64,000 nucleotides of DNA from Narcine bancroftii (taxonomy: Eukaryota), in NCBI RefSeq assembly GCF_036971445.1, contig NC_091471.1:109864001-109928000 (forward strand), given 5' to 3'. Below, piece by piece: positions 8,223 to 45,786 of the stretch. A program made the position numbers and the translations under genes. Each line of letters starts with the position of its first letter. The first letter of the stretch is position 1. A model generated the notes under the pieces. It worked only from the letters and a program-made list of their open reading frames with translations, was not told the DNA's origin and did no database searches.

Positions 8223-10808
8223 AGGCACTTTCAGGTAGATTAAATATTCATTTGTACAGACAGAGGTTCTTTGCCCTTATGGCTAAAGATGTACCTTCCT
8301 AAATATGCCCTGGTTGGCTCGGAGGCTCAAATTCCAACCCTTCTTGGGGAAGGATAATTGGCGGAGTACTACACTCTGCTGCCTGACCTGAATGCACAGC
8401 CACTGCAAGCGGCTGGTTAGGAGAGGGCTGATGACGCAGGGTTGGTGGACGGGAGCTGTCATCGGGAGCTGTCAGGGCAGTGGGTCTGTCAGGGCAGCGA
8501 GAACTGTCAACGGGTCAGCGGGGACCATTGGAACAGTGGGAGCTGTCAAGGGGTGGTGAGATCCATCAGGGGCCAGCAGGGACCATTGGGGCAGCGTGAG
8601 CCATCAGGGCAGCGTGAGCCGTTGGGGGCGGCAGGGACTATCAGGGGTGGCAGGGACTATCGGGGCTCTGGGGACAGGCGGGGCAGTGGGGACTGTCGGG
8701 GCAGCGGGGACCTTTGGGGCACCAGGAGCCAGCATGGGACAGCTGGCAGGGTTCAGGGTGGCTCAAAACATGACAGAGCAATGGATGTCTTCCCTACCCA
8801 TAATCCCCCACACAACTGGAAAAGTTCTAGGAAACACAGAACAGTTCCAGCTGTGTGGGGGATTATGGGTAGGGAAGACAGCCATTGCTCTGCCACATAT
8901 TTATGATGGGTGGTGCTGTGGTACCAGTCTCCTTGCCTCCATCGGCTCCAGGGGGTGATGTGAGGTGCCTCTGGTTATGAATGGGGCGCTGGAGCAGCCT
9001 TTTACAAGAGAGGATACAAATAACCTCTCAAGGATGTTGGGAAACATAGAGACTAATGCAAGGGAGGAACTGAAAGAAATCAGTATTTCTAAGGACATGG
9101 TCTTGGGGAAATTGATAGGATTGAAGGGAGATAAATCCCAAGGGCCTGATAATCTACATCCTAGGGTACTTAAGGAAGTGGCCATTCAGATAGGAGATGC
9201 TTTAAGAATTATTTTCCAGAACTTGATAGACTCAGGATCAGTACCCATGGATTGGAGGGTAGCTAATGTTACCCCACTATTTAAAAAGGTGGGGGGGGGT
9301 AGAGAAAAAGCAGGGAATTATAGGCCAGTGAGCCTTACATCAGTAATGGGCAAAATGATGGAATCCATTATTAAGGATGTAATAGCGGAGCATATGACTA
9401 GCAGAGAAGGGATTGGACAGAGTCAACATGGATTTACAAAAGGTAAATCGTGCTTGACAAATCTATTGAAATTCTTTGAGATGGTGACAGGTAAAATAGA
9501 TGGGGGAGAGCCAGTGGATGTGGTGTACCTGGACTTCCAAAAGGCCTTCGATAAGGTCCCGCATAAACGACTGGCTTCCAAAATCAAGGCTTATGGGATT
9601 GGGGGCAAAGTATTGATGTGGATTGAGAACTGGCTGGCAGGTAGAAGACAGAGAGTTGGGATAAATGGCTCGTTTTCTGAGTGGCAGGCGGTGACCAGTG
9701 GGGTGCCACAGGGATCTGTACTGGGACCCCAGCTGTTCACAATTTACATTAATGATCTAGATGAGGGGATTGGATGTAATATCTCCAAATTTTCAGATGA
9801 CACTAAGCTAGGAGGGGTTGTGTGCACGGAAAAGGGGGTCAGGAAGCTCCAGTGTGATTTGGATAAATTGAGGGACTGGGCAGATACATGGCAAATGCAC
9901 TACAATGTGGATAAATGTGAGGTTATCCACTTTGGTAATACAAACCGAAGGGTAGATTACTATTTGAATGGCAATAGATTAAGAGATGGGGAAGTGCAGA
10001 GAGACCTAGGGGTACTTGTACACCAGTCTCTGAAGGCGAGCATGCAGGTACAGCAGGCAGTTAAAAAGGGAAATGGTATGTTGGCCTTCATATCAAGAGG
10101 GTTTGAGTAGAGGAACAAGGATACCTTACTGCAGCTGTACAGGGCCTTGGTGAGACCCCACCTGGAATATTGTGTGCAGTTTTGGTCACCTTATCTAAGG
10201 AACGATGTTTTTGCAATGGAGGGAGTGCAGAGGCGATTTGCCAGGCTGATACCTGGAATGGCAGGAATGACTTATGAGGAAAGATTGCGCAAATTGGGAT
10301 TGTACTCGCTGGAGTTTAGAAGATTGAGAGGGGATCTCATAGAGACCTATAAAATTCTGGCAGGACTGGACAGAATGGATGCAGGTGGGATGTTTCCAAT
10401 GATGGGAAAATCCAGAACCCGGGGCCATGGTTTGAGGATAATAGGCAAACCATTTAGGACTGAAATGAGGAGGAATTTCTTTACCCAGAGGGTGGTGAAT
10501 TTGTGGAATTCATTGCCACAGAGGGCAGTAGAGGCAGGTTCATTAAATATATTTAAGAAGAAATTAGATATATTTCTTCAGTATAAGGGTATTAAAGGTT
10601 ACGGAGAGAAGGCGGGGACGGGGTACTGAACTTTAAGATCAGCCACGATCTCGTTGAATAGCGGAGCAGGCTCGAAGGGTCGATTGACCTACTCCTGCTC
10701 CTATCTTCTATGTTTCTATGTTTCTGTGTTGTCTGAAAGGTAAGTTCTTAGTTTTCCTTCTGCTTCTGTAGCCAACCTCAAGGTGGAGGTCTGATGTGAA
10801 ATGGCCTT
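8223..10808. mobile_element. Degenerate PIF/Harbinger-like non-autonomous element with internal GC-rich ~18-bp tandem repeats (8440-8760), interrupted by a CR1
   Basis: Left end aggcactttcaggt resembles the TIR of the 44387-45786 element; 8335-8412 aligns with the reverse complement of 45600-45683; possible right end gtgaaatggcct. Confidence 0.45.
8999..10725 (+). mobile_element. Young 5'-truncated CR1 LINE; ORF2 RT nearly intact (one in-frame TAG at 10108-10110, ends 10629)
   Basis: NYRPVSLTS, YLDFQKAFDKVPH, GVPQGSVLGP, FSDDTKL, RPHLEYCVQFWSP; (tttctatg)n tail. Confidence 0.95.
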
Positions 10809-15460: not shown

Positions 15461-16091
15461 ATCCTGGCTGCTGGGCCCGAAAACTCAGGAAGTATCTGGC
15501 GTAGACCCCATTCATTGCAGGGTTGTATATGGCCTCTAGGATAGCCATTGCTCCTGGGTACTCTGTACAGTCTTGGAAGGCCTGGAAGGCACGGCAACCC
15601 AACTTTGTGCGGATCTCTACAAGTTTCTTCTGATCCATGTATACCACATCAGAGTGTGCCTGGATGACTGCCTCGACCGTGTGCCCCCAGATTTCAAAGT
15701 GTGCTTGGGCTTCCGGGTGGCGAGGTTTGATCTCTAGGCTCCCGATGGTTAGTAGCTTTTCCATAGCAGGTCTAAATTTTTAACTGAATAAATTGTGATA
15801 CGCTGCTGCAGCAGTAAGCAGACACAAAACTCAAGAAAGACTGTACAACAGGATTTATTCAGCTAAAAGTCTCTGCTACAATGGTAGCTGTACTGGTGGC
15901 TCCCGAGTGACTGGCTCGGGAGGGGCCGGCTCAGGATTATATCTCGGACAGTTGATTGACAGCTGGCTAGGTGGAGTTAGGTCTATTCAGGTCGGCTGAT
16001 TGACAGCCAGCCAGGTGTGGTCTGTCCTCCAGTTATTTTCCTGCAGGTACAGAGATTGCCCTCTGCAGTAGGCTAGTGGTGTATTACCACA
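15461..16091 (-). mobile_element. Gypsy LTR retrotransposon 5' fragment: LTR 16091-15794 plus gag N-terminus (ATG 15764)
   Basis: 298-bp TG...CA LTR with TATA-like and AATAAA motifs; gag MEKLLT..AHFEIW..YARYFLSFRAQQPG is homologous to the gag at 22279 (LASRKQQPGES). Confidence 0.85.
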
Positions 16092-19854: not shown

Positions 19855-21346
19855 TTTTTTTTTTCTTTGGCTTGGCTTCGCGGACGAAGATTTATGGAGG
19901 GGGTAAAAAGTCCACGTCAGCTGCAGGCTCGTTTGTGGCTGACCAGTCCGATGCGGGACAGGCAGACACGATTGCAGCGGTTGCAAGGGAAAATTGGTTG
20001 GTTGGGGTTGGGTGTTGGGTTTTTCCTCCTTTGCCTTTTGTCAGTGAGGTGGGCTCTGCGGTCTTCCTCAAAGGAGGCTGCTGCCCGCCAAACTGTGAGG
20101 CGCCAAGATGCACGGTTTGAGGCGTTATCAGCCCACTGGCGGTGGTCAATGTGGCAGGCACCAAGAGATTTCTTTAGGCAGTCCTTGTACCTTTTCTTTG
20201 GTGCACCTCTGTCACGGTGGCCAGTGGAGAGCTCGCCATATAATACGATCTTGGGAAGGCGATGGTCCTCCATTCTGGAGACGTGACCCATCCAGCGCAG
20301 CTGGATCTTCAGCAGCGTGGACTCGATGCTGTCGACCTCTGCCATCTCGAGTACCTCGACGTTAGGGGTGTGAGCGCTCCAATGGATGTTGAGGATGGAG
20401 CGGAGACAACGCTGGTGGAAGCGTTCTAGGAGCCGTAGGTGGTGCCGGTAGAGGACCCATGATTCGGAGCCGAACAGGAGTGTGGGTATGACAACGGCTC
20501 TGTATACGCTTATCTTTGTGAGGTTTTTCAGTTGGTTGTTTTTCCATACTCTTTTGTGTAGTCTTCCAAAGGCGCTATTTGCCTTGGCGAGTCTGTTGTC
20601 TATCTCATTGTCGATCCTTGCATCTGATGAAATGGTGCAGCCGAGATAGGTAAACTGGTTGACCGTTTTGAGTTTTGTGTGCCCGATGGAGATGTGGGGG
20701 GGCTGGTAGTCATGGTGGGGAGCTGGCTGATGGAGGACCTCAGTTTTCTTCAGGCTGACTTCCAGGCCAAACATTTTGGCAGTTTCCGCAAAGCAGGACG
20801 TCAAGCGCTGAAGAGCTGGCTCTGAATGGGCAACTAAAGCGGCATCATCTGCAAAGAGTAGTTCACGGACAAGTTTCTCTTGTGTCTTGGTGTGAGCTTG
20901 CAGGCGCCTCAGATTGAAGAGACTGCCATCCGTGCGGTACCGGATGTAAACAGCGTCTTCATTGTTGGGGTCTTTCATGGCTTGGTTCAGCATCATGCTG
21001 AAGAAGATTGAAAAGAGGGTTGGTGCGAGAACACAGCCTTGCTTCACGCCATTGTTAATGGAGAAGGGTTCAGAGAGCTCATTGCTGTATCTGACCCGAC
21101 CTTGTTGGTTTTCGTGCAGTTGGATAATCATGTTGAGGAACTTTGGGGGACATCCGATGCGCTCTAGTATTTGCCAAAGCCCTTTCCTGCTCACGGTGTC
21201 GAAGGCTTTGGTGAGGTCAACAAAGGTGATGTAGAGTCCTTTGTTTTGTTCTCTACACTTTTCTTGGAGCTGTCTGAGGGCAAAGACCATGTCAGTGGTT
21301 CCTCTGTTAGCGCGAAAGCCGCACTGTGATTCTGGGAGAATATTCT
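19855..21346 (-). mobile_element. Young 5'-truncated RTE (BovB-like) LINE with uninterrupted RT ORF (21290-19917, 457 aa)
   Basis: FVDLTKAFDTV, GVKQGCVLAPTLF, LLFADD, C-terminal CNRCNRVCLSRIGLVSHKRAC; short 3' UTR with A-rich tail; TSD CAGAATC at 19848-19854 and 21347-21353. Confidence 0.95.
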
Positions 21347-21479
21347 CAGAATCAGATGTGTGCTAAACAACAAAAATGGTTCCTGATGAGCAAAATAAAA
21401 CTATTTCATAACCGGTAGACAGGTCAAAGCTCTGCAGTCTTGTCATATCGCACCATGAAAAACGGTGGTCAATTAAACG

Positions 21480-22011: not shown

Positions 22012-22016
22012 GGATC

Positions 22017-25000
22017 TGTAATGATATGGATTGTACATAGTCATTGACTGGTAAAGGCATGGGCTGGCCCACCCCCCTGATGACACTCTCCCCTGGACTC
22101 CTCCCCTGTGGCCTAGGCCATAAAGGTTGAGCCACCTCTCCCCTCACTGCACTTCCTGAGCTTGGATCTGGGCCAGCTCAAGTCTTCTGTACAATAAAGC
22201 CTGTCATTCCCCTCAGTCTTTGTCCTTGTGGTTATTGGGGAAACTGGTAGTGCCCATCAGTTTATTGTACAGAACTAGATGCTGCTGCACCCCAATCGAC
22301 GAGAGGTGGATCCCCAAGTCTTGGGTGCATCAGAACTCTTTGAACAGTGGATCAGTTGTTTTAACAACTTCCTTGAGGCCGCTGCTGGAGTGGTCGACTC
22401 GGATGAGAAGAGGCTGAAAGTTCTACAGGTAAGAGTCGGTCAGAGGGCTTTTCAGGCCATCAGAAGCTGTGCGACCTACACCGAGGTGATGGCTGAGCTA
22501 CAGGCACTATACAAGCTCAAAATCAACGAGGTCTACTACCGCCACCTCCTGGCATCTAGAAAACAGCAGCCTGGTGAGTCAGTAGAAGAGTTCATTCGAG
22601 CCCTGATCACACTGGGAAAAGACTGTTTGGGGAACCCCACGGTCCCTGTGCCAGGGTTCCAGTGTGTGGAAGACCCGATCCAGGATGCTTGTGTGTCGGG
22701 AGTGAGGTCAGACTATATCCGACAACGTCTCTTCAAGGAGGATCAACTACCGCTGAAGTAGGTGATCCAACTGGCCAGGACTTTACACTCAGCCCAGCAT
22801 CACATGGAGTTGATCGCGGGCAGAAGTGGGCCTACCCCGTACGTGCCATCACTAGGGCCATCATCCTGGGAGTCAGTGTCGGGGACGGCCGACCCGACCG
22901 CGGGTGCAGTGGCACTGAGATCCATGAGATGCCACTTGTGTGGGCAAGCAAGACACCTATGATGATTCTGCCCTGCAAAGAGAGCTATCTGCTCGGGCTG
23001 TGTGAAAAAGGGCCATTATCAACAGGTCTGTAGGTCCAGAGACTCATCCCAAAGCAGCTCGGTGTGTATGGCTGAGGAGCTTCTGGTGCCGGCCGTGAGC
23101 GTGGTAAGGGGAGGTGCCATCTTACTCGCTGCCGCCCCCATGCTTTACACAGTGGTTGCCCTCATCGGCAAAGTCACTTCCACCACCGATGACACAACTT
23201 CCGCCTTCTTCATCAATGTTGGCAGCATGGTCAACATGGAGGCTGCCATCTTGGACATGGGCCTCCCCACCAACGACGAAGATGATGCACTCATCCTGGC
23301 ATTGATCACCTTGGACCAAACCAGCCCTCTTCCGATCACGAACTCCATGATGCAGATCGAGGTGAATGGAGACAAATCAAACTGCTTCTTTGATAGTGGC
23401 AGTACCAAAAGTTTTATCCACTCCGAGGTGGCCCGTAGGCTCTCGATCCCTGTATGGCCGATGACTGGATCCATGTCGATGGTGGCGAAAGACAGGGGAC
23501 TTGTATCCGAGGGTACTGTGTGGCATTTCTGATGGTGGGGGGGAATGTTATAATGACTTTTTGTTGTTGGTCATGCCCCAGCTCTGTGCACCGATCCTCC
23601 TTGGCCTCGACTTCCAGAGACAGTTCAAGAGTGTGATGATGGCGTTCACTGTTTGCAAACCACAGGACCCCCCCTCAAATCCAGTCCCAGCCTCTGGCAC
23701 TGACCTGCAGCCTCACTGCCCTGCGGGTGGCCCCTCCATCACTATTTGAAAACCTCACCTCGGACTGTAAACAGATTGCCATCAAGAGCATTCACTACAG
23801 TGCTGAGGATATGGCGTTCATCCGGGCCAAGGTTCAGCGACTCTTGGTGGATGAGGTCATAGCCCCTAGCTCCAGCCCCTAGAGGGCACAGGTCCTCATG
23901 GTCAAAGGGGCAGGCAAACCCCAGATGGTGACTGACTACAGTCAAACCATCAACCGCTTCACTCAGTTGGATGCATACCCTCTACCCCGGATAGCCGACT
24001 TAATCAACAAGGCGCACAATACAATCTTTTTGACCATTGACCTCAAGTCAGCTTATCATCAACTTCCTTTTCACCCGAGCGACCGGCTCTACGCGGGATT
24101 TGAGGCCGATGGCAAACTTTTTCACTTCCTCTGGGTGCCTTTTGGTGTTTATAATGGTGTCTCTGCTTTTCAGAGGGTCATGGATCAGATGGTGAAGGAG
24201 CAGAAGCTGACAGCGACATTCCCATACCTTGACAATGTCACGATCTGCGACCATGACCAGCAGGACCATGATGCAAACCTCGCAAAGTTCTTAGATATGG
24301 CCAAGTCTCTCAACTTGACGTACAATAAGGACAAGTGCATGTCCAACACAGACCGCCTGGCCCTTCTCCGTTGCATTGTGGCACATGGTGTCATTGCCCC
24401 GGACCCCAACCTCATGTGACGTTTTATGGAGCTGCCAGTTCCAAACACCCTAAAGGCGCTGAAGAGGTGCCTGGGGCTGTTTTCCTATTGTGTACAATGG
24501 GTGTCCAATTTTGGCCGACAAGGCCCACCCCCTGATTAAGTCCATAACTTTCCCGTTGTTGGTGGAAACCCAAGCTGCATTCTATCAGATCAAAGGAGAC
24601 ATCGCAAAGGCCACGATGCATCCCGTGGACGAGTCCATCCTGTTTCAGGTGGAGAGCGATGCCTCTGACTTTGCACTGGCCGCCACTCTTAACTAGGCAG
24701 GCAGGCCAGTAGCATTTTTCTCCCACACCCTGCACGGTCCTGAGGTACGGCACTCCTTGGTCGAGAAGGAGGCACAAGTGATCGTTGAGGCAGTGTGTCA
24801 CTGGCGACATTGCCTGGGTGGTAAACGGTTTACCCTGCTGACAGACCAGCGGGCTGTGGCCTTCATGTTTAATATAAAATAGTGGGGTAAAATCAAGAAT
24901 GACGTTTCTTAGGTGGAGGGATCGAGCTCTCCACCTATAATTACGACATCTTGTACCAACCAGGTAAACTCAATGATCCCCCAGATGCGCGCATCTCGAT

Positions 25001-26462
25001 TGCCTCCAGGCCCTCCACGACAGACTGTGGCACCCCAGAGTCACAAGGTTGTACCACTTTATCAAGACTCGGAACCTGTCGTACTCCGTTGAGGTCGTCA
25101 GGTCCATGACCAGAAGCTGCAAGATCTGCGCTGAATGTAAACTGCAGTTCTACCGACCCGAAAAGACACATCTTATTAAGGCCACAAGCCCTTTTGAACG
25201 GCTCAGTGTTAATTTCAAGGACCCCCTACCCACCACAAATAGGAATGCTACTTCCTGATGGTGGTGGACGAGTTCTCCAGGTTCCCCTTTGCTATTCCCT
25301 GCCCGGATATGACCTCAGAGATCGTAATTAAGGCGCTGCGAAGCATCTTCAACCTGTACGGGTACCCCAATTACATCCACAGCGATAAGGGGTCTTCATT
25401 CATGAATGAGGAACTGTGACAGTACTTCCTGGCCAGAGTCATAGCCACCAGCAGGACCACCAGCTATAACCCCAGGGGTAATGGCCAGGTGGAAAAGGAG
25501 AATGACACTGTCTGGAAGGCAGTGCTCCTAACCCTTAGGTGTCCCACTAGCAGGACGTTCTGCCGAAAGCACTCCATGCCATCTGATCTTTCCTGTGCAC
25601 CGCAACTAATACCACCCCGCATGAATGCTTGTTTGCTTTTCCCTAGGAGATCGGCAAATGGTCCCTCCATTCCTCCTTGGCTGGCAACCCCAGGGCTGGT
25701 CCTACTATGGAAACATGCGAGGGGCCACAAGTCGGATCCACTGGTGGAAGCGGTACACCTCATACACACCAACCCTCAATACATGTTTGTGAGGTACCCC
25801 GATGGCCACGAGGACACTGTTCCTATCCGAGACCTGGCGAGGGCCAGAGATCCCGAAACTGTGCTGTCCACCACCAACCACCCCACGGAGCAGACCACCC
25901 CACACTGGAACTCAATACTAGATGCAGAGCTGCCCAGCTCTCCTCTCCAGGAGTTGGTCCCCATGGGAGACATCAAACTTCCCTCTTTCCCGGGAGCCCT
26001 CAGTCATCACCCCAACCCAGACTGTTCCCCCCTGGGACTGCTTCCCCTCCCGAACAGCAGAGCACGGACACACTTACTCCCCGTCAGTCCCGCAGATAGA
26101 GGAAGTCGCCGGTGTGACTGAATCTCTAGTTAAACAGAAAATGTTTTTTGTCTGTAGGTCCCACCTCTGGAAAAAGTGGAGGGGGGGGGGGGGGGTTCTG
26201 TTTAAAATGAAGGAGTAAATGTAATGATATGGATTGTACATAGTCATTGGCTGGTAAAGGCATGGGCTGGTCCACCCCCTGATGACACTCTCCCCTGGAC
26301 TCCTCCCCTGTGGCCTAGGCCATAAAGGTCGAGCCACCTCTCCTTTCACTCCACTTCCCTAGCTTGGATCTGGGCCAGCTCAAGTCTTCTGTACAATAAA
26401 GCCTATCGTTCCCCTTCAGTCTTTGTTCTTGTGGTTATTGGGGCAACTGGTAGTGCCCATCA
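22017..26462 (+). mobile_element. Full-length decayed Gypsy LTR retrotransposon (4446 bp): LTRs 22017-22259 and 26220-26462, gag-PR-RT-RH-INT broken by stops and frameshifts
   Basis: 243-bp TG..CA LTRs, 5-bp TSD GGATC both sides, purine tract at 26204-26219; gag with degenerate knuckles, protease FDSGS, RT DAYPLPRI/IDLKSAYHQ/YLDN, RNase H VESDASDFALAATL, integrase C..C and HSDKG. Confidence 0.95.
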
Positions 26463-26759
26463 GGATCACTGTTAAAGGCAAAAGTACTTTTATTTGGGAT
26501 CATATCTCACTACAAAGGAGGTAATTATGATTGCTAGTGATTGATCATCAGAGCATTATCCTCATTTCAACCATCTTCAGCTGTTTCTTCAATGACCTAC
26601 CATTCAGATCAGAAGTGGGGATAATTGTTAATATTTGCATGATGTTCAATTCAATTTACAACTCCTCAGCAAATGACACAGCAAGGCCTGGACAACATAT
26701 GGTCATGGGCAGGTAACTTTGGCACCACCAGAGTCCCAGGGATGGTCACCTCCAACAAG

Positions 26760-30335: not shown

Positions 30336-31287
30336 CTTCCTGGCTATACTGCCATTGAACCATTTCCTCAGCCCTGGCTTCCGAGTTAGTCTGCCATTGT
30401 CCCATTTCCTCTGCACTGGCTTCCTGGCTAGTCTGCCGTTGTCCCATTTTCTCTGCATTGGCTTCCTGGCTAGACTGCCATTGAACCATTTCCTCAGCAC
30501 TGGCTTCCGAGTTAGTCTGCCATTGTCCCATTTCCTCTGCACTGGCTTCCTGGCCAGTCTGCCATTGAATCATTTCCTCTGCACTGGCTTCCTGGCTAGT
30601 CTGCCATTGTCCCATTTCCTCTGCACTGGCTTCCTGGCTAGTCTGCCATTGAACCATTTCCTCTGCACTGGCTTCCTGGCTAGTCTGCCATTGAACCATT
30701 TCCTCTGCACTGGCTTCCTGGCTAGTCTGCCATTGAACCATTCCCTCTGCACTGGCTTCCTGTCTAGTCTGCCATTGAATCATTTCCTCAGCACTGGCTT
30801 CCAAGTTAGTCTGCCATTGTCCCATTTCCTCTGCATTGGCTTCCTGGCTAGTCTGCCATTGTCCCATTTTCTCTGCATTGGCTTCCTGGCCAGTCTGCCA
30901 TTGAATCATTTCCTCTGCACTGGCTTCCTGGCTAGTCTGCCATTGTCCCATTTCCTCTGCACCGGCTTCCTGGCTAGTCTGCCATTGAACCATTTCCTCT
31001 GCACTGGCTTCCTGGCTAGTCTGCCATTGAACCATTTCCTCTGCACTGGCTTCCTGGCTAGTCTGCCATTGTCCCATTTCCTCTGCACTGGCTTCCTGGC
31101 TAGTCTGTCATTGTCCCATTTCCTCTGCACTGGCTTCCTGGCTAGTCTGCCATTGAACCATTTCCTCTGCACTGGCTTCCTGGCTAGTCTGTCATTGTCC
31201 CATTTCCTCTGCACTGGCTTCCTGGCTAGTCTGTCATTGTCCCATTTCCTCTGCACTGGCTTCCTGGCCAGTCTGCCATTGAATCAT
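30336..31287. repeat. 42-bp minisatellite, ~22-23 copies (catttcctctgcactggcttcctggctagtctgccattg[aa/tc]c)
   Basis: Direct tandem units without spacers; 14-aa periodicity in the ORF track. Confidence 0.95.
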
Positions 31288-32469
31288 TTATTTCATCCTG
31301 CAGGGACATTAGCTTTTCTTCTTCTCCATATGAGTCTTCTTGTCTGTGTGATCTCATTTCCCAGAAAGCTAAATGTTTGTCACTCTGGTTGCAGGTGGTT
31401 CATGTTGCTTCATGTGCTGAGGCCACTGCTAAGATAATTTCTGCAGCAGTGGTGCTCAGTTATGCCACCCTGGAGCCACATTCAAAATCACCAAGACCTG
31501 TATACCTCCTGTATGTCCATCTATCACCCCGCCAAACACATGCAATGAAAATATTAATATTTAAAAACATAAAATTATAATTGGTTTGAGCTGATGTCCT
31601 ACTGTTACATAGTGGGAATGCATAAAACTACATGTAAAAAAATAAAATGTCATATTCTGAACAGATATGGGAGATATTGAAGGGCTACAAACTGCACACC
31701 AAAGAGCCATAATTTGAGCATCACTAGAATGCAATGCTCCTGTATCCAAACTGGTGGCTCTGAGTGTCAACTTCAGCACAATGTGATTGCTTTAGCCCAG
31801 TCAGGCCAATTTACAATTCTTGGCAATCTGAAGGAAGAAAGGCACAAAGTTGGAACTGTGGTGAGTTGAGGCATAAGATACATGCTTACACCACCTGCAG
31901 CTTGTAGACCGTGGGCTGAAGGGCAAGAGGAGCAAGAACATGTGAATGAGGTATGAGCTTATGCCCACTTTCAACAATTCAGCCTCTAGTTCTGGACTTT
32001 GTCAATGCCATTCTAATAATGGTGAGTGCTGCAGGTAAGGAGATGCAGTTGTGCCTGCCCCCGCTGGTTTGCTGGAATGATTTTTGTGCTGTCTTCTCCT
32101 GTAATTGCAGGAAGGGACAAGTATGCTCATGAGTTTTGGAATGTTTGAATGAAATGGCCTTGTAGTTGCATAGATGACATTGTATGGAAACCGTGGTTGG
32201 GATAAGTTTGCAAATGGATCATTGGTACAAATAATGGAGAATGGAACCCAGTCTCTCCCTCTGCATTGTACAATTACATAATTCCATCATTTGCTGCAGC
32301 TCCAATGCCTCTTCAATGCAGGATGTTTTGGCCATGCAAGCAGGCCTATCCCTCCATTGCAATATTTGTCTATCAAGTTACCTCCTGAGGCAAGATCACA
32401 CCCAATTATATCACATATGCATTTATTAGGGAATGAATTAACCAGGTTATTTAACTTTAATTTATATTT

Positions 32470-33248: not shown

Positions 33249-36200
33249 TGGTGTAGGGTGCAGACGTGGAGTTTCATCTCTTCCCAGTTGGAGTGGGCCC
33301 CAACAAAAGGGTCAGGCCTCCCCAAGTGGCCCAAATGAGTTGGACGTGTGGGGGAAGGTATGCTGACCCGGGGTTGGGAGGCCCAGGCAGTGGTGGTGGT
33401 GGCGGCAATGACATCTACGTATACTACCCGACATAATTCATTTTCTAGAATAGATTTCTTTTTAGTGTCGGCTCATCTACAGAGAAGAATAGATCTGGCA
33501 GAATACCTTGATGAAGACTTCAACTTAATACTGAAGGCTGCTAGATTCATTAAAGGTAGGCCTCAAATGCTTCAGAAAGTTTCTAAAATCTCTAGAAGTA
33601 AGTCTCCAATGTTACAGACTTTTAAAACAGTGCAGGTGGAAGAAGACACTACAATTTCTGTTTCAGAAGATTTTATGTGAAGAATGGATAATATGGCTCT
33701 TCAGGTTTCTCAAGGTTTTCAAGAAAATAAGTTCCAATTTGCAGAATTAAAAGGTGAAGTGGCATCGATTAAGCAAGATGTGGTTAAATGTTTAAGAGAA
33801 GTGAATGTGGTTCAGGTGGAATTTAAGGATATCAAACGAGTGTTTCATGACTGTACTGATACTGTTGATCAATATGTGGAGTGGATAGACTATTTGGAAC
33901 ATTGTTTAACAGATTGGAAGGTGCAGAAGTGCAAGTTTATGCAGAAGATTGATTCATTTGAAAATCAGTGTAGACGTAATAATGTTAAAATCGTAGGTTT
34001 GCCAGAGGATATTGAAGGTTCAGATCCGGTGAAGTTTTTTCAGAGATGGATACCTGAAATGTTAGGAGAGGATGCCTTTCCTGAGGGGTTGGAATTGGAT
34101 AGAGCACATAGAGCATTGCGAAGAAAACTCTTTCTTGATCAACCTCCACGGTTCTTGTTTGTTGTTTAAGATTTCAAGAACGTGAATTAATTTTGCGACT
34201 GGCAATTCAGAAAGCCTGGCAGAATCAAGGTCCTATGTTGGTTCAGGGACACAGTTTTTTTAAATCCAGATTTAAATCAAGATGTGATGTGCCGTTGGAA
34301 AGAATTTAATCCGGCGAAAGCAGTGCTGTGGAAAAAGGATTATCAGTTTGCTTTTAGATACTCTGCTGTATTGAAGGTTTTTTTTATGGGATTCACAAGT
34401 TGAATTCTTTGATGATGAAACTGATGCTTTGTCGTTTGCCAATTCTTTGCCTAATAAACCTCAAGAGTTCTGAATTACAGAAATCCAAGCCTAATGGATT
34501 TCCGAAGCATAATGATGCTGTGAATCGGAAAATTGAGGATGATCCATCTGCTGCTGTTGTTAATGTTCAGAAAGCAGTTGGTGGAGTTGTGGGGGTGGTG
34601 GATTGAATTAGATTGATATTTAAACAAAATTTTGAGATGTATGAAATTCAACGGGGGGGGGGGAGGGGAGTGGATGGCACCATAACTTCCGAAGTCATCT
34701 GCCACTAGTGGTTTTTACCAAACCCAGTTTATAGAGGGGGGAGTATTACTTTGTTTTTTTCTTTTCTTTTTTTTTAAATTTTTTCTCTTCGAGGGAAGGG
34801 AGGGTTTTTTTTAAAGAGGGATTTAAAGGGAGAGGGGGGTTGTTTTTTTAATTTAAAAAAAATTATATATTTTTTTAACCAGAGCCTAAGTTTGTTGGTA
34901 GGTTGGTTGTTAAAAGTTTTTTTTAAGATAAAATGAGTAAATTGAATTGTGCGACTTTTAATGTTAAAGGGATGAATCATCCAATAAAGAGGAAGCAAAT
35001 TTTGGATTATATCAAGAAGATGAAAGTGGATATTGCCTTCTTGCAAGAGATGTATTTGACCAAAAAAGAACATTTGAAATTGAAGAGGGATTTGGTCGGA
35101 CATGTATTGGCATCATCTTTTAATTCAAAAGCGAGAGGAGTGGTGAATTTAATACATAAGAGAATACCTTTTATGTTGGACTCTGTTTTTGAAAGTGCTG
35201 GAAGAGCTTTGAAGGTGGATTATAAATTTTTTTCTGAAACATGGACTTTATTGTATTTATACGCTCCGAATGAGGATGACGTACAATTTGTAACTGATGC
35301 ATTTTTGAATTTGAGTCAGTCAAATGACAATATAATGGTAGGTGGGGATTTTAACTTCTGCCTGGATCCATTATTGGATAAATCTCCAAAAATTGTCAAG
35401 AAAACACAAATGGCTAAAAGATTGGGAGAAGTAATGGGAGACTTGAATTTGGTGGACATTTGGTGACGTATTCATCCGAATGAGAAAGATTACTCATATT
35501 ATTCTGCCCGACATAATTCATTTTCTAAAATAGATATTTTAGTGTCGGCTCATCTACAGGGAAGAGTAGATCTGGCAGAATATAAAAGTAGAATATTGTC
35601 GGACCATTCATTATTGTTGATATCCCGTGAGATTGCTGTAAAGGCTGAGAGAAATTACCATTGGAGGTTAAATAAAATGTTACTTAGATGACCTGAATTT
35701 GTTATGTTTTTAAAGGACCAGATAAAACTTTTTTTTGAAAATAAATGAGGGATCAGTGCAGAGTAAATTTACATTGTGAGAAGCTTTGAAAGTGTATTTG
35801 AGAGGTCAGGTTATTAGTTATATGGCTAAAGTGAAAAAGAAATATAATAAGGAACTTCTTGAGTTAGAGAAAGAGATTGAAGAGTTAGAGAAAAAAATTT
35901 CAACAGAGTGCAATGAAAGATAATAAGATACAGTTAGCTAATCTAAAACTTTGTTATAATATGAAATGAACTTATAATTATGAAAAATTGATTTTGAGAT
36001 CAAAGCAGTGGTATTATGAGTTAGGGGAAAGAGCACATAAAGTACTAGTGTGGCAGTTGAAAATGGAACAAACTTCCAGAATAATTTATGCAGTACGTGG
36101 AAATTCAGGTATTACTTATGAACCACAGGAGATAAATGAGGAGTTTCGTACTTTCTATCAGGAATTATATATACTTATTTGTCTAGTTTGAATTTGGCTG

Positions 36201-38853
36201 TGTTTGAAGAGCAAGATGTAAGATTGTTAGATAATTCATTCACAGAGTTTGAATTGAAAGAGGCATTGCAAGCAATGCGTATGAGTAAATCAACTGGTGA
36301 AGATGGATTTATGATGGAATTTTATAAGGAATTTCATGATTCGTTGTTTCCAGTATACATGGATGTTTTGAGGCAGGCCACAGATACTGGACTATTTCTT
36401 GAATCATTCTCGAGAGCATTGATAATGGTTATACCAAAGAAAGATAGAGATCTATTTAAAATTGGTTCTTATAGGCCTATATCTTTACTTAATGTAGATT
36501 ATAAGATTGTAGCAAAGGTTTTGGCTAACAGATTAGCTAATTGTTTACCAAAATTAGTACGTGGAAACCAAACAGGGTTTATTAAAAATAGATATTCAGT
36601 TGATAATATTACTAAATTAATTACAATAATTAATGCATCCAGATGGCAAATTAGCACTGGATGCTGAGAAAGCTTTTGATCATGAAGAGTGGAAATTTTT
36701 ATCTAAAGTGTAACAACGATATAAGTTTGGGCAATTTTTTATAGGTTGGATTAAGGCATTATATAAGAATCATTCTGCACAGGCGGTGACAAATGGTCAG
36801 ATTTCTCAAGCATTTAATTTGTGTAGATCAACTAGACAGGGTTGTCCATTGTCACCAGCCTTGTAATTAGTAATAGAACCTTTAGCTCAAGCGATTAGAC
36901 AGAATATGACAATTCAAGGCATTACAATTGGACAACATGAGTATAAAATTAACTTAATTGCAGATGATGTCTTGATATATTTATCTAAACTGAAGAGTTC
37001 ATTACGACCTTTACAAGAATGATTGGAATATTATGGGTCAATGTTAGGATATAATGTAAATTGGGAGAAAATTGAGATATTTCCAATATCCGAAGAAGAT
37101 TATTCAGGCAAATTACTAATTTTAAATGGTCTGAGAAGATTAAGTATTTAAGGGTACTTATTGATAAGGAATTTAATAATTTGTATAGTTTAAATTATTT
37201 ATCTTTATTAAATAGGATTAAATTTGATTTGAATCGATGGAAAGATTTACCATTGACGTTAACTGGCTGAATAAACTGTGTTAAAATGAATATCTACCCA
37301 TGTATTCAGTATTTGTTTCAATCAATTCCATGTTTGGTACTGGGGAATTTTTTTAAAGAATTGAATAAGGCAGTACATTTTTTTTTATGGAAAGGTAAAT
37401 TATCAAGAGTCTCGATGCAAAAGTTGACATGGTCATATGACTTGGGAGGTCTTCAATTACCACATTTTCAAAATTATTATCATGCAGCACAATTGAAGTT
37501 TATTAGTAGATTCCTTGATATTGACCAACCACCCATGTAGGCATACGTGGAGATGGATCAGATACATGAAAAGTCATTAAATAATTTTATATATAAGTGG
37601 AATTTATTGCTTTTGCAAACATATAAAGTACCAGTCTTAATTCATTTATTTAAAATATGGAACAAGTGGAATCAGTCTATAGGTTCGAAAGAAATATGTT
37701 CAATTAAAACTCCGCTATATCAAAATCAATTGATTCCCTTCTCAATGCACAACCCTTATTAGAAGGAGTAGGACTTAAAAGGTTTGGTATTAATTGAAGA
37801 TTGTTTTGAGGCAGGTTTATTTCTTTCATTTGACACACTTAGGGAGAAATTTGGAATATTACGAAACATGTTATTTGCTTATTATTAAATACAGGATTTA
37901 AAAAATTAATAAGTTTGGTCGAAACTTGATATTACCAAGGCAATCGAAGTTTGAAATTTTGCTTATGGACAAGGAAAAGAAAGGGTTTGTTTCAGAGATG
38001 TATTTGTTATTACAATCAAAAATGAAGAAGTCTGGAATGTTGAGAGTAAGAGATAAATGGGAACAGGAGTTAGCTATGGTTATCCCTGATGAAGTATGGT
38101 CTGATTTATGCCTACATAGTGTAACAAAATTAGTTAACGTATGTTATAGTTTAGTTAATTATAACTTTTTACATCAGTTATATTTAACTCCTGAAAAGTT
38201 AAAGAGGTATGGTTTTAGGGAATATGATTTGTTTTAGATGTGGAGATCAGGTAGGTACGTCTATACATTCTGTGTGGGAATGGTCAAAAGTTAAACCTTT
38301 TTGGGAAAAGTTTATTAAATTTTTGCCAGATTTATTTCAAATAGATTTGTTTGTGGATCCATAGTTGTGCCTATTTGGATCTAAGAATCCATTAACAACA
38401 AGTTTAGATAAATTTTGGGTTGTGCTTATTCGTTTAAGTTTGGCAGTAGCTAGGAAATGTATAGCGGTAACTTGGAAAAATGATGTAGACCTAAGTATAG
38501 GTAGCCTAATGAAATTCAATCATGTTTGTATTTGGAGAAAATTACATATAATTTGAGGAATAATTATTCTTTTTTTGAAAATATGTGGACTTTATATTTG
38601 AAAGGTATGAAGCTAAATGTTAAGTAATTGTTATTTTTATTTGCATTATAATTCAACCCATTTCGTATTTTGTAATAACCTTCTTTCTTTATGTTAAACT
38701 CCGGGGGGAGGGAGGGATAATAAGGGGTGGGGGGGGATAGTGGGTGGAAATCTGGGGGGGGGGGTAAGGGGAATAAGGGTTTTTTTTCCATTTATGTTTT
38801 GTTATATTTCTTTTGTATTCCTTTGTAAAATTCAAAATAAAATTAAAAAAAAA
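33249..38853 (+). mobile_element. Near full-length decayed L1-clade LINE: ORF1 (~33500-34600), ORF2 EN-RT (34933-~38620), G-rich 3' UTR, poly(A)
   Basis: ORF1 ENQCRRNNVKIVGLPE..LDRAHRAL; EN ATFNVKG..AFLQE..YAPN..GGDFN; RT SYRPISLLNVDYKI, RQGCPLSP, ADD; 14-bp TSD AGAAATGGCCAAAG at 33235-33248 and 38854-38867. Confidence 0.92.
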
Positions 38854-44386: not shown

Positions 44387-45786
44387 AGGCTTTTTCAGGT
44401 GCATTCTTGGCTAAGAATGCGCCTGAAGAGCACAGAAGCGTCCCTTTAAATTGCAGTTCAGGTAGCAGTGTTGAAAGCGCAGTGCTGGCCACTTGAAAGG
44501 ACAGCTGCGGCAGGATGTGCATCTGAGTGCATTTCGGCTCCTGTCCCTTGGGCTGTCAATTCAGGATGGCTGGCTGTCAGTTGGAACAGCCAGCGCGGGC
44601 TATCAGCGCGTGGACGTCCCATGCAGGATGTTCCCACACTGTGGGGCGGCTGGCGTGGGCTGTCCCCACACTGTCAGGCAGCCGGCGCAGGTTGTCCCCA
44701 CACTGTCAGTTGGCCGGGGTGGGCTGTCAGTGCAGGGACAACCCGCGCGGGATGTCCCCACACTGATCCCGCTACCCTACTCTCTCCCCCCTCATGAATC
44801 CAGTCCACACATTGTGGGGTGGCCAGCGCGGGGGTACGGGGGCTTGAGTGGCTGGCGGGGGAGGAGGCTGGAGCACCGGTGGGGGAGAAGGAGGCTGGAG
44901 CGGCCGGTGAGTGAGTATGGGGGCTGGAGCTGCTGGTGGGGGAGGAGGCTGGAGCACTGGTGGGGGAGAAGGAGGCTGGAGCGGCCAATGGGTGAGTACG
45001 GAAGCTGGAATGGCCGGCGGGGGAGGAGGCTGAAGCATCAGTGGGTGAGTACAGAGGCTGGAGTGGCCAGCGGGGGAGGAGGCTGAAGTGGCTGGCGGGT
45101 GAGTATGGGGGCTGGAGCAGCCGGGAGGGGAGGAGGCTGGGGCACCGGCGGGGGAGGAGGCTGGGGCACCGGCGGGGGAGGAGGAGGCTGGAGTGGCCAG
45201 CGGGTGAGTACAGGGACTGGAGCAGCCGGCGGGGGAGGAGGCTGGAGCACCGGCAGGGGAGGAGGCTGGAGCACCGGTGGGTGAGTATGGTGGCTGGAGC
45301 AGCCGTTGGGGGAGAAGGAGGCGCTCGAGTCGAGTACCGGCATTGTTTTGGCCAACCCCCTTCTCCCCTACCGGACGCTCTATTCCCCTTCTTCCCACTC
45401 CCGAAATCAGTAACGACAGTGTGGGGACAGCCCGCGCTGGCTGCCCGACAGTGTGGGGACTGATTTCATGAGTGGGGAGAGAGCTGGGCAGCGGGATCAG
45501 TATGGGAATGTCCCCGCGCTGACAGCCCACGCTGGCTGCCCGACAGTGTGGGGACTGGGAGAGGAGCTGTCAGGCACTGGGCAGTTGATTGTCATCTGAA
45601 TGTAGCTGCTTTTAGGTGGCTGCATTCAGATGGCTGGGGAGGCAACTGTGCCGTGAGGATTATCCCTTTCAGAGGAGGGTTACCAAACTCGCCTGGCAGG
45701 CGCCTCCTGCACATTCCCGTGGCCTTCCCTTCCTTGCCAAAATATGTGGCTTAACAAGTAGGTCAATTGGCCACCTGAAAGAGCCT
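44387..45786. mobile_element. Non-autonomous DNA transposon, PIF/Harbinger-like, 1400 bp, with GC-rich internal tandem repeats
   Basis: TIRs AGGCTTTTTCAGGTG and CACCTGAAAGAGCCT, 3-bp TSD AAT, cleanly interrupts the CR1; subterminal ccccacactgtc and gacagtgtgggg inverted motifs. Superfamily assignment is inference. Confidence 0.8.

Follow-up and report, generated by a model that had tools for sequence, protein, structure and literature searches.

A covarying duplex between the LTR and its downstream flank suggests self-primed reverse transcription in a clade of animal Ty3/Gypsy elements

Comparison of elements from five families suggests that, in a widespread and apparently non-chromoviral clade of animal Ty3/Gypsy retrotransposons, element RNA and not a tRNA probably serves as the primer of reverse transcription. 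A segment of the LTR which terminates in the poly(A) hexamer is complementary to the sequence at the primer-binding-site position, and the two arms change together from family to family. Two members of the clade are located in the window, by which we mean the whole stretch of 64,000 nucleotides of Narcine bancroftii DNA analysed here.

Results

Two Gypsy elements of the window share a duplex at the end of the 5' LTR

The first element, E1, lies on the plus strand and is a Gypsy of full length which has decayed; a 5-bp target-site duplication (22012-22016 and 26463-26467) flanks it. Its 243-nt 5' LTR (22017-22259) is 94% identical to the 3' LTR (26220-26462), which together with the purine-rich tract occupies 26204-26462. 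The internal coding region (22279-25854) is interrupted by stops and frameshifts. The TG..CA LTRs, the target-site duplication, the purine tract and the domain order gag-protease-RT-RNase H-integrase are those by which Ty3/Gypsy elements are recognised. Within the 5' LTR an arm with AATAAA at its end (22185-22198) forms 14 Watson-Crick pairs with a post-LTR arm (22261-22274) which follows the LTR after an unpaired spacer of one nucleotide. This duplex is reached by none of 2000 shuffles; the fold of the whole region is not significantly more stable than expected by chance (z = -1.42, 18 of 200 shuffles as stable). The hexamer of the E1 3' LTR is devoid of a pairing partner.

The second element, E2, lies on the minus strand and comprises a 5' LTR of 298 nt (15794-16091) as well as a truncated gag (15462-15764), recognised by homology, of which approximately the first 100 codons match relatives and whose ATG is located 29 nt past the LTR. 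Neither a partner LTR nor the rest of the element was found in the 64-kb window. Since a single LTR copy survives, the LTR ends had to be deduced and were placed by means of TG..CA and short terminal inverted repeats. For this element an earlier note had claimed a 16-nt pairing with one G-U between LTR and post-LTR sequence, which turned out to be exact. Read on the minus strand, the post-LTR arm (15793-15778, ATTTATTCAGTTAAAA), which takes the primer-binding-site position and contains no TGG there, is complementary to the LTR arm (15868-15853, TTTTAGCTGAATAAAT), the predicted self-primer, over 16 contiguous pairs including one G-U. The LTR arm includes AATAAA at 15859-15854, which is the sole hexamer of the E2 LTR. 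Dinucleotide shuffling of the 200 nt upstream matches the duplex in none of 2000 cases, and none of 200 shuffles is as stable as the fold of the 171-nt region (z = -3.86). The geometry claimed to be common to both elements is likewise recovered, E1 showing a duplex of 14 bp and the distance from the hexamer end to the LTR end amounting to 60 and 61 nt in the two elements.

When the window was scanned blind, on either strand, for CA followed by one to two nucleotides and an anti-hexamer, 27 sites were obtained. A hexamer is present 30 to 70 nt upstream in four of them, and the pairing extends by more than two pairs in two only, both of which are Gypsy 5' LTR ends, namely those of E1 and E2.

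Within the window, no tRNA gene and no match to an Rfam RNA is present. Its further repeats include a 42-bp minisatellite (30336-31289) with about 23 copies and 90% matches, which is open in two reading frames, and a GC-rich degenerate tandem array (44773-45514) with periods of 27-105 nt which is surrounded by an inverted repeat. RT/endonuclease ORF remnants resembling non-LTR (LINE) elements are found at 8959-10107, 19917-21362, 34927-36667 and 54470-55159. In addition, there are two dispersed repeat pairs of about 1 kb (18676-19732/51597-52636 and 11445-12362/43474-44352), which are 79-93% alike and the copies of which are, in both pairs, located about 32-33 kb apart.

Protein features set the clade apart from Tf1/sushi elements

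The Gag proteins of E1 and E2 are 36% identical (E 5e-20 in a pairwise comparison). E2 had previously been regarded as a second, sequence-dissimilar Gypsy family, which is correct with respect to the LTRs, as these are unlike, but not in the sense of a separate lineage, as Gag places both elements in one clade. Hence, the duplexes of E1 and E2 do not represent independent origins.

A search with the RT of E1, for which Ty3 is the best solved relative, retrieved 777 proteins at E <= 1e-30 from 1208 candidates. Among the best 120 of these 777, the named sequences include those of catsharks and rays, which are 62-70% identical to E1, and those of corals, damselfly, leafhopper, shrimp and fluke. 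This distribution would by itself point to a cartilaginous fish as the probable source of the window. Searching with E1 Gag in profile-free mode yielded 849 unnamed relatives. E2 Gag matched 50 of the 120 listed RT relatives and, in a homolog search among longer proteins, none of 241 candidates; an Atlas search returned generic Gag clusters only.

Among relatives exceeding 1,100 aa the median length is 1,213 aa, and two CCHC arrays are present in 44 of 52 of them, the other eight having one. A chromodomain was detected neither in the six relatives subjected to a Pfam scan nor in the precomputed domains of the 120 listed relatives, and the integrase tail of E1 matched no domain family. Chromoviruses usually possess a chromodomain (PMC10085805) and, in Gag, one CCHC array, two arrays being typical of Mag and Micropia/Mdg3 (PMC2577118). 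With two CCHC arrays and no chromodomain the clade therefore falls outside the Tf1/sushi protein features. Judged by these protein features and not by a reference tree, the clade harbouring E1 and E2 looks like a non-chromoviral animal Ty3/Gypsy group.

The 243-nt LTR of E1 and the median length of its relatives are close to the dimensions of Cigr-1, the LTRs of which measure about 245 nt and the single ORF of which spans about 1,210 codons; as a clade name, Cigr-1 is only a lead. The two CCHC arrays, typical of Mag, are a feature in common with Mag-related animal Gypsy elements (PMC2577118). Assignment to the Saci2 clade is unlikely, since PMC12471100 describes target duplications of 4 bp for it and reports tRNA sites in its elements.

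The duplex recurs in further families

A scan of GTDB genomes, built on an alignment of 15 named relatives, gave 95 pattern matches, and seven loci (L001 to L007) encode a relative of the clade. These are evidently eukaryotic contaminant contigs inside bacterial MAGs which serve as GTDB representatives; in L001 and L002 a circularly permuted element bearing one LTR makes up the entire contig. An LTR-gag junction is present in L001 to L004, while L005, L006 and L007, having no 5' junction, were excluded from the counts. L003 and L004 represent one family (LTR ends 95% identical), of which L004 only was taken into the swap test described below. L004, like E1, is flanked by a 5-bp target-site duplication.

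All four junction elements from outside the window, belonging to three families, show the duplex. Their LTR arm ends in AATAAA or ATTAAA and pairs with sequence 1-2 nt past the terminal CA, and gag is located 21-28 nt downstream of the LTR. The duplex is reached by 1, 1, 8 and 0 of 2000 shuffles in L001, L002, L003 and L004, respectively, the counts for L002 and L003, as well as that for E1, having been obtained with LTR ends 1-2 nt off the final ones. In L002, the duplex of which comprises 14 pairs, both sides are altered to ATTAAA/TTTAAT, corresponding to a common poly(A) variant. The 5' LTR of L003 retains just 10 contiguous pairs and accounts for the highest of these counts. As in E2, the LTR ends of L001 and L002 were deduced from single LTR copies, and in L001 an alternative CA occurs 9 nt before the assigned end.

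The earlier note had argued that pairing kept across divergent sequences reflects a functional RNA structure, and had named other copies with a tRNA primer binding site or with no complementarity as the case that would speak against it. No such copy was encountered, since all four further elements pair, with changes on both sides of the duplex, and none contains a tRNA-type site. Thus, as far as sequence comparison can tell, the view of the pairing as a functional RNA structure is supported.

L003 (4919-5113) and L004 (4979-5172) each contain two AATAAA motifs, 38 and 23 nt short of the LTR end, of which the upstream one pairs. The 3' LTRs of another family, in L005 (7180) and L006 (7566), show ATTAAA at a distance of 41 nt from their apparent end, which predicts a post-LTR arm of the TTTAAT type.

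In an RT tree of 20 rows, which comprises relatives and one distant Gypsy, is poorly resolved in its deep branches and does not include E2 as this has no RT, duplex carriers occupy four separate branches. L002 joins a coral element (99/95), L003 and L004 form a branch of their own, L001 is sister (86/94) to a group of shark and ray elements, within which E1 falls. The trait looks clade-wide.

The two arms covary in a fixed register

In the elements with a junction the hexamer and the 6-9 nt preceding it are complementary to sequence 1-2 nt past the 5' LTR, the duplex length ranging from 12 to 16 bp across elements. The last base of the hexamer lies opposite post-LTR nucleotide 2 in five elements and opposite nucleotide 3 in L001; this fixed register could be inherited and not selected.

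In the swap test, which covered the eight positions preceding the hexamer in five families and hence a small sample, arms of the same family form 37 of 40 Watson-Crick pairs outside the hexamer, compared to a mean of 3.65 of eight pairs when the arms are swapped between families. An equally good result is given by one of 120 permutations, the minimum which the test can return. At least two types of Watson-Crick pair occur in all eight non-hexamer columns of the five families and in one of the six hexamer columns. Over their terminal 110 nt, the LTRs of different families show an identity of 0.47-0.64, which is at or near the level of shuffles (0.48-0.54). Since the post-LTR arm changes together with the LTR, its annealing partner must be element RNA.

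A TGG or any tRNA-type primer site directly behind the 5' LTR is present in none of the six elements. Neumann et al. recognise a self-primer by complementarity of at least 10 bp beginning 0-5 nt past the LTR (PMC6317226), and in all six elements complementarity of this length is found at this position. In one table, a tRNA site is assigned in 32 of the 44 rows on sponge and echinoderm Gypsy elements which form part of it (PMC13524379, supplement). The 12 rows without an assigned tRNA site (PMC13524379, supplementary file 3) are candidates for the same pattern.

The poly(A) hexamer is predicted to be masked in the 5' LTR

The hexamer is located within the duplex in all six elements. According to folding models its probability of being unpaired is 0.01-0.06 in the presence of the post-LTR arm and 0.55-0.88 in three real 3' LTR contexts; the E2 hexamer is already partly paired without the post-LTR arm (0.26-0.42 unpaired). 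Masking would be specific to the 5' LTR because the pairing partner lies outside the LTR. As it follows automatically from the pairing, the modelled masking is not independent proof of function. Clear U-enrichment downstream of the hexamer is confined to E1 and E2. Retroviruses with a poly(A) signal in R need its suppression at the 5' end (PMC12789967), and masking by the duplex would, on the strength of these models, solve the problem of premature polyadenylation described for them.

Other RNA structures are not conserved

A hairpin between the TATA-like box and the duplex had been proposed to be common to both window LTRs. It is real in E2, where the 8-bp stem at 15900-15922 (minus strand), the loop of which had been given in plus-strand reading, is matched in a shuffle fold test by one of 500 shuffles. 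It is, however, specific to E2 and lies outside the conserved feature: the corresponding stem of E1 (22157-22180) is broken in the E1 3' LTR, and in the matching segment of the other five elements 48-347 of 500 shuffles are as stable. For this reason a conserved upstream hairpin was rejected.

A three-duplex pretzel of the Tf1 type was rejected as well, because its downstream duplex is no better than in shuffles and its inner stem is variable. Pairing of the sequence following the primer site with R-U5 does not rise above shuffles in any of the six elements (141-423 of 500), and the inner R-U5 stem is significant in L001 only (1 of 500) and marginal in L002 (22 of 500). For 15794-15853 and 22198-22259 the predicted fold prolongs the duplex by an inner R-U5 stem from which the 7 terminal LTR nucleotides bulge out; this extension in E1 and E2 is not significant alone and is not common to L002-L004.

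In four elements TATA-like boxes are located 59-98 nt upstream of the hexamer, the putative one of E2 (15936-15941, minus strand) at a distance of 82 nt, on account of which the LTR arm would be internal to the transcript. The 5' end of the duplex nevertheless falls at about the same position in four of the five families.

Discussion

If the clade primes itself as we consider probable, the nascent RNA would fold into the LTR/post-LTR duplex and be cleaved directly 3' of the hexamer; if Tf1 is taken as a model, the RNase H of the element is the probable agent. The 3'-OH thus created would prime minus-strand DNA synthesis across 38-61 nt of R-U5, and the 10-30 nt from the cut to the poly(A) site would constitute the overlap for strand transfer. 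At the same time, the duplex would bury AAUAAA in the 5' LTR only and thereby reduce premature polyadenylation, while the AAUAAA of the 3' LTR, being without a partner, would stay exposed.

The covariation cannot distinguish the 5' from the 3' copy of the arm, and the same arm is present in the 3' LTR. We consider it unlikely, yet worth weighing, that the primer is derived from the 3' R of the element or from a short LTR transcript, is trimmed to the hexamer and anneals at the primer site, thereby circularising the RNA or working in trans. Both the constant primer end at the poly(A) signal and the missing Tf1-type pretzel could be accounted for in this way. The 5' arm, however, lies at a distance of 38-61 nt and should fold first during transcription, and a covalent join to the 3' R would impede strand transfer. 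We know of no precedent for an element 3' R serving as primer of reverse transcription.

Structure-based masking of a poly(A) signal is known for HIV-1 (PMC12789967), and the inclusion of the hexamer in every duplex, its modelled masking in the 5' context only and the gag start close behind the post-LTR arm would all suit a duplex which merely masks the 5' signal, or serves translation or packaging, with priming left to something else. What makes this improbable in our judgement is that the arm sits exactly at the primer-site position, where no TGG site is left. Priming needs a constant spacing from the terminal CA, whereas masking does not and would give no reason for the constant 1-2 nt observed.

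Half-tRNA primers occur in Copia lineages (PMC6317226). That a half-tRNA or another small host RNA serves as primer here, the LTR complementarity being secondary, is nevertheless very improbable, as the post-LTR arm varies at all eight non-hexamer positions and tracks the LTR arm, and a fixed host RNA primer cannot explain pairing with an arm which varies in step in this manner. Chance, or the neutral legacy of AT-rich sequence and an old inverted duplication, might be invoked in view of the AT-richness of the arms and the post hoc choice of the first two cases, but can practically be dismissed given that the duplex is reached by 0, 0, 1, 1, 8 and 0 of 2000 shuffles, that the window scan finds it solely at two LTR ends, and that it had been predicted beforehand in the four external elements, which show double-sided changes.

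The closest parallel to the self-priming we favour is Tf1, where an LTR segment complementary to the post-LTR sequence serves as primer after its cleavage (PMC10085805, PMC4600332, PMC5341516). Like the present clade, the Tf1/sushi chromoviruses described in this literature (Tf1, Tf2, Tj1, Tosmo1-3, Tcn1, sushi) have no tRNA site and carry post-LTR sequence complementary to the LTR. The present clade is distinguished from them by the absence of a chromodomain, by its two CCHC arrays and by its occurrence in invertebrates. Compared to Tf1 itself, moreover, its arm terminates with the poly(A) hexamer and probably occupies an internal instead of a 5'-terminal position, and the downstream duplex of the pretzel is unsupported.

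In HIV-1, which is primed by a tRNA, the poly(A) stem lies within the repeat, whereas here the partner is located outside the LTR. What both would have in common is a stem, near the RNA 5' end, which conceals AAUAAA (PMC12789967). For the plant Copia TAR lineage (Houba, Osr-1) self-priming has been predicted by the same criterion of LTR complementarity; this lineage belongs to another superfamily and to plant hosts, and the sections of PMC6317226 which concern it give no link to a poly(A) signal.

An open-literature search retrieved neither self-priming in non-chromoviral animal Gypsy elements nor a primer ending at the poly(A) signal, an earlier mention of the pairing in a single element being possible; self-priming with a primer ended by the poly(A) signal thus apparently is undescribed so far in such a lineage. 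We regard as real a covarying RNA signal which would work like Tf1 self-priming, lies outside the Tf1/sushi protein features and is linked to the poly(A) signal. Tentatively, and with rather more doubt than confidence, we suggest that tRNA-free priming arose in a pan-animal Gypsy lineage separately from its origin in Tf1/sushi, with the poly(A) signal as the primer 3' end. If so, one duplex silences the 5' poly(A) site and sets the primer end, be it through an internal cut or through 3'-end trimming.

In practical terms, the pattern provides a simple annotation rule for Gypsy elements which are listed without a primer site. Going by PMC6317226 and PMC10085805, self-priming has hitherto been treated as characteristic of the Tf1/sushi chromoviruses and a single plant Copia lineage. 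To these, a large animal clade which is apparently non-chromoviral and has a covarying self-primer would add another case; it bears on the question, raised in PMC3601003, of whether hairpin priming is ancestral or recurrent among LTR elements. It also suggests an economical way in which an LTR with AAUAAA in R may escape 5' termination. Finally, such elements would offer host tRNA fragments no tRNA-complementary site.
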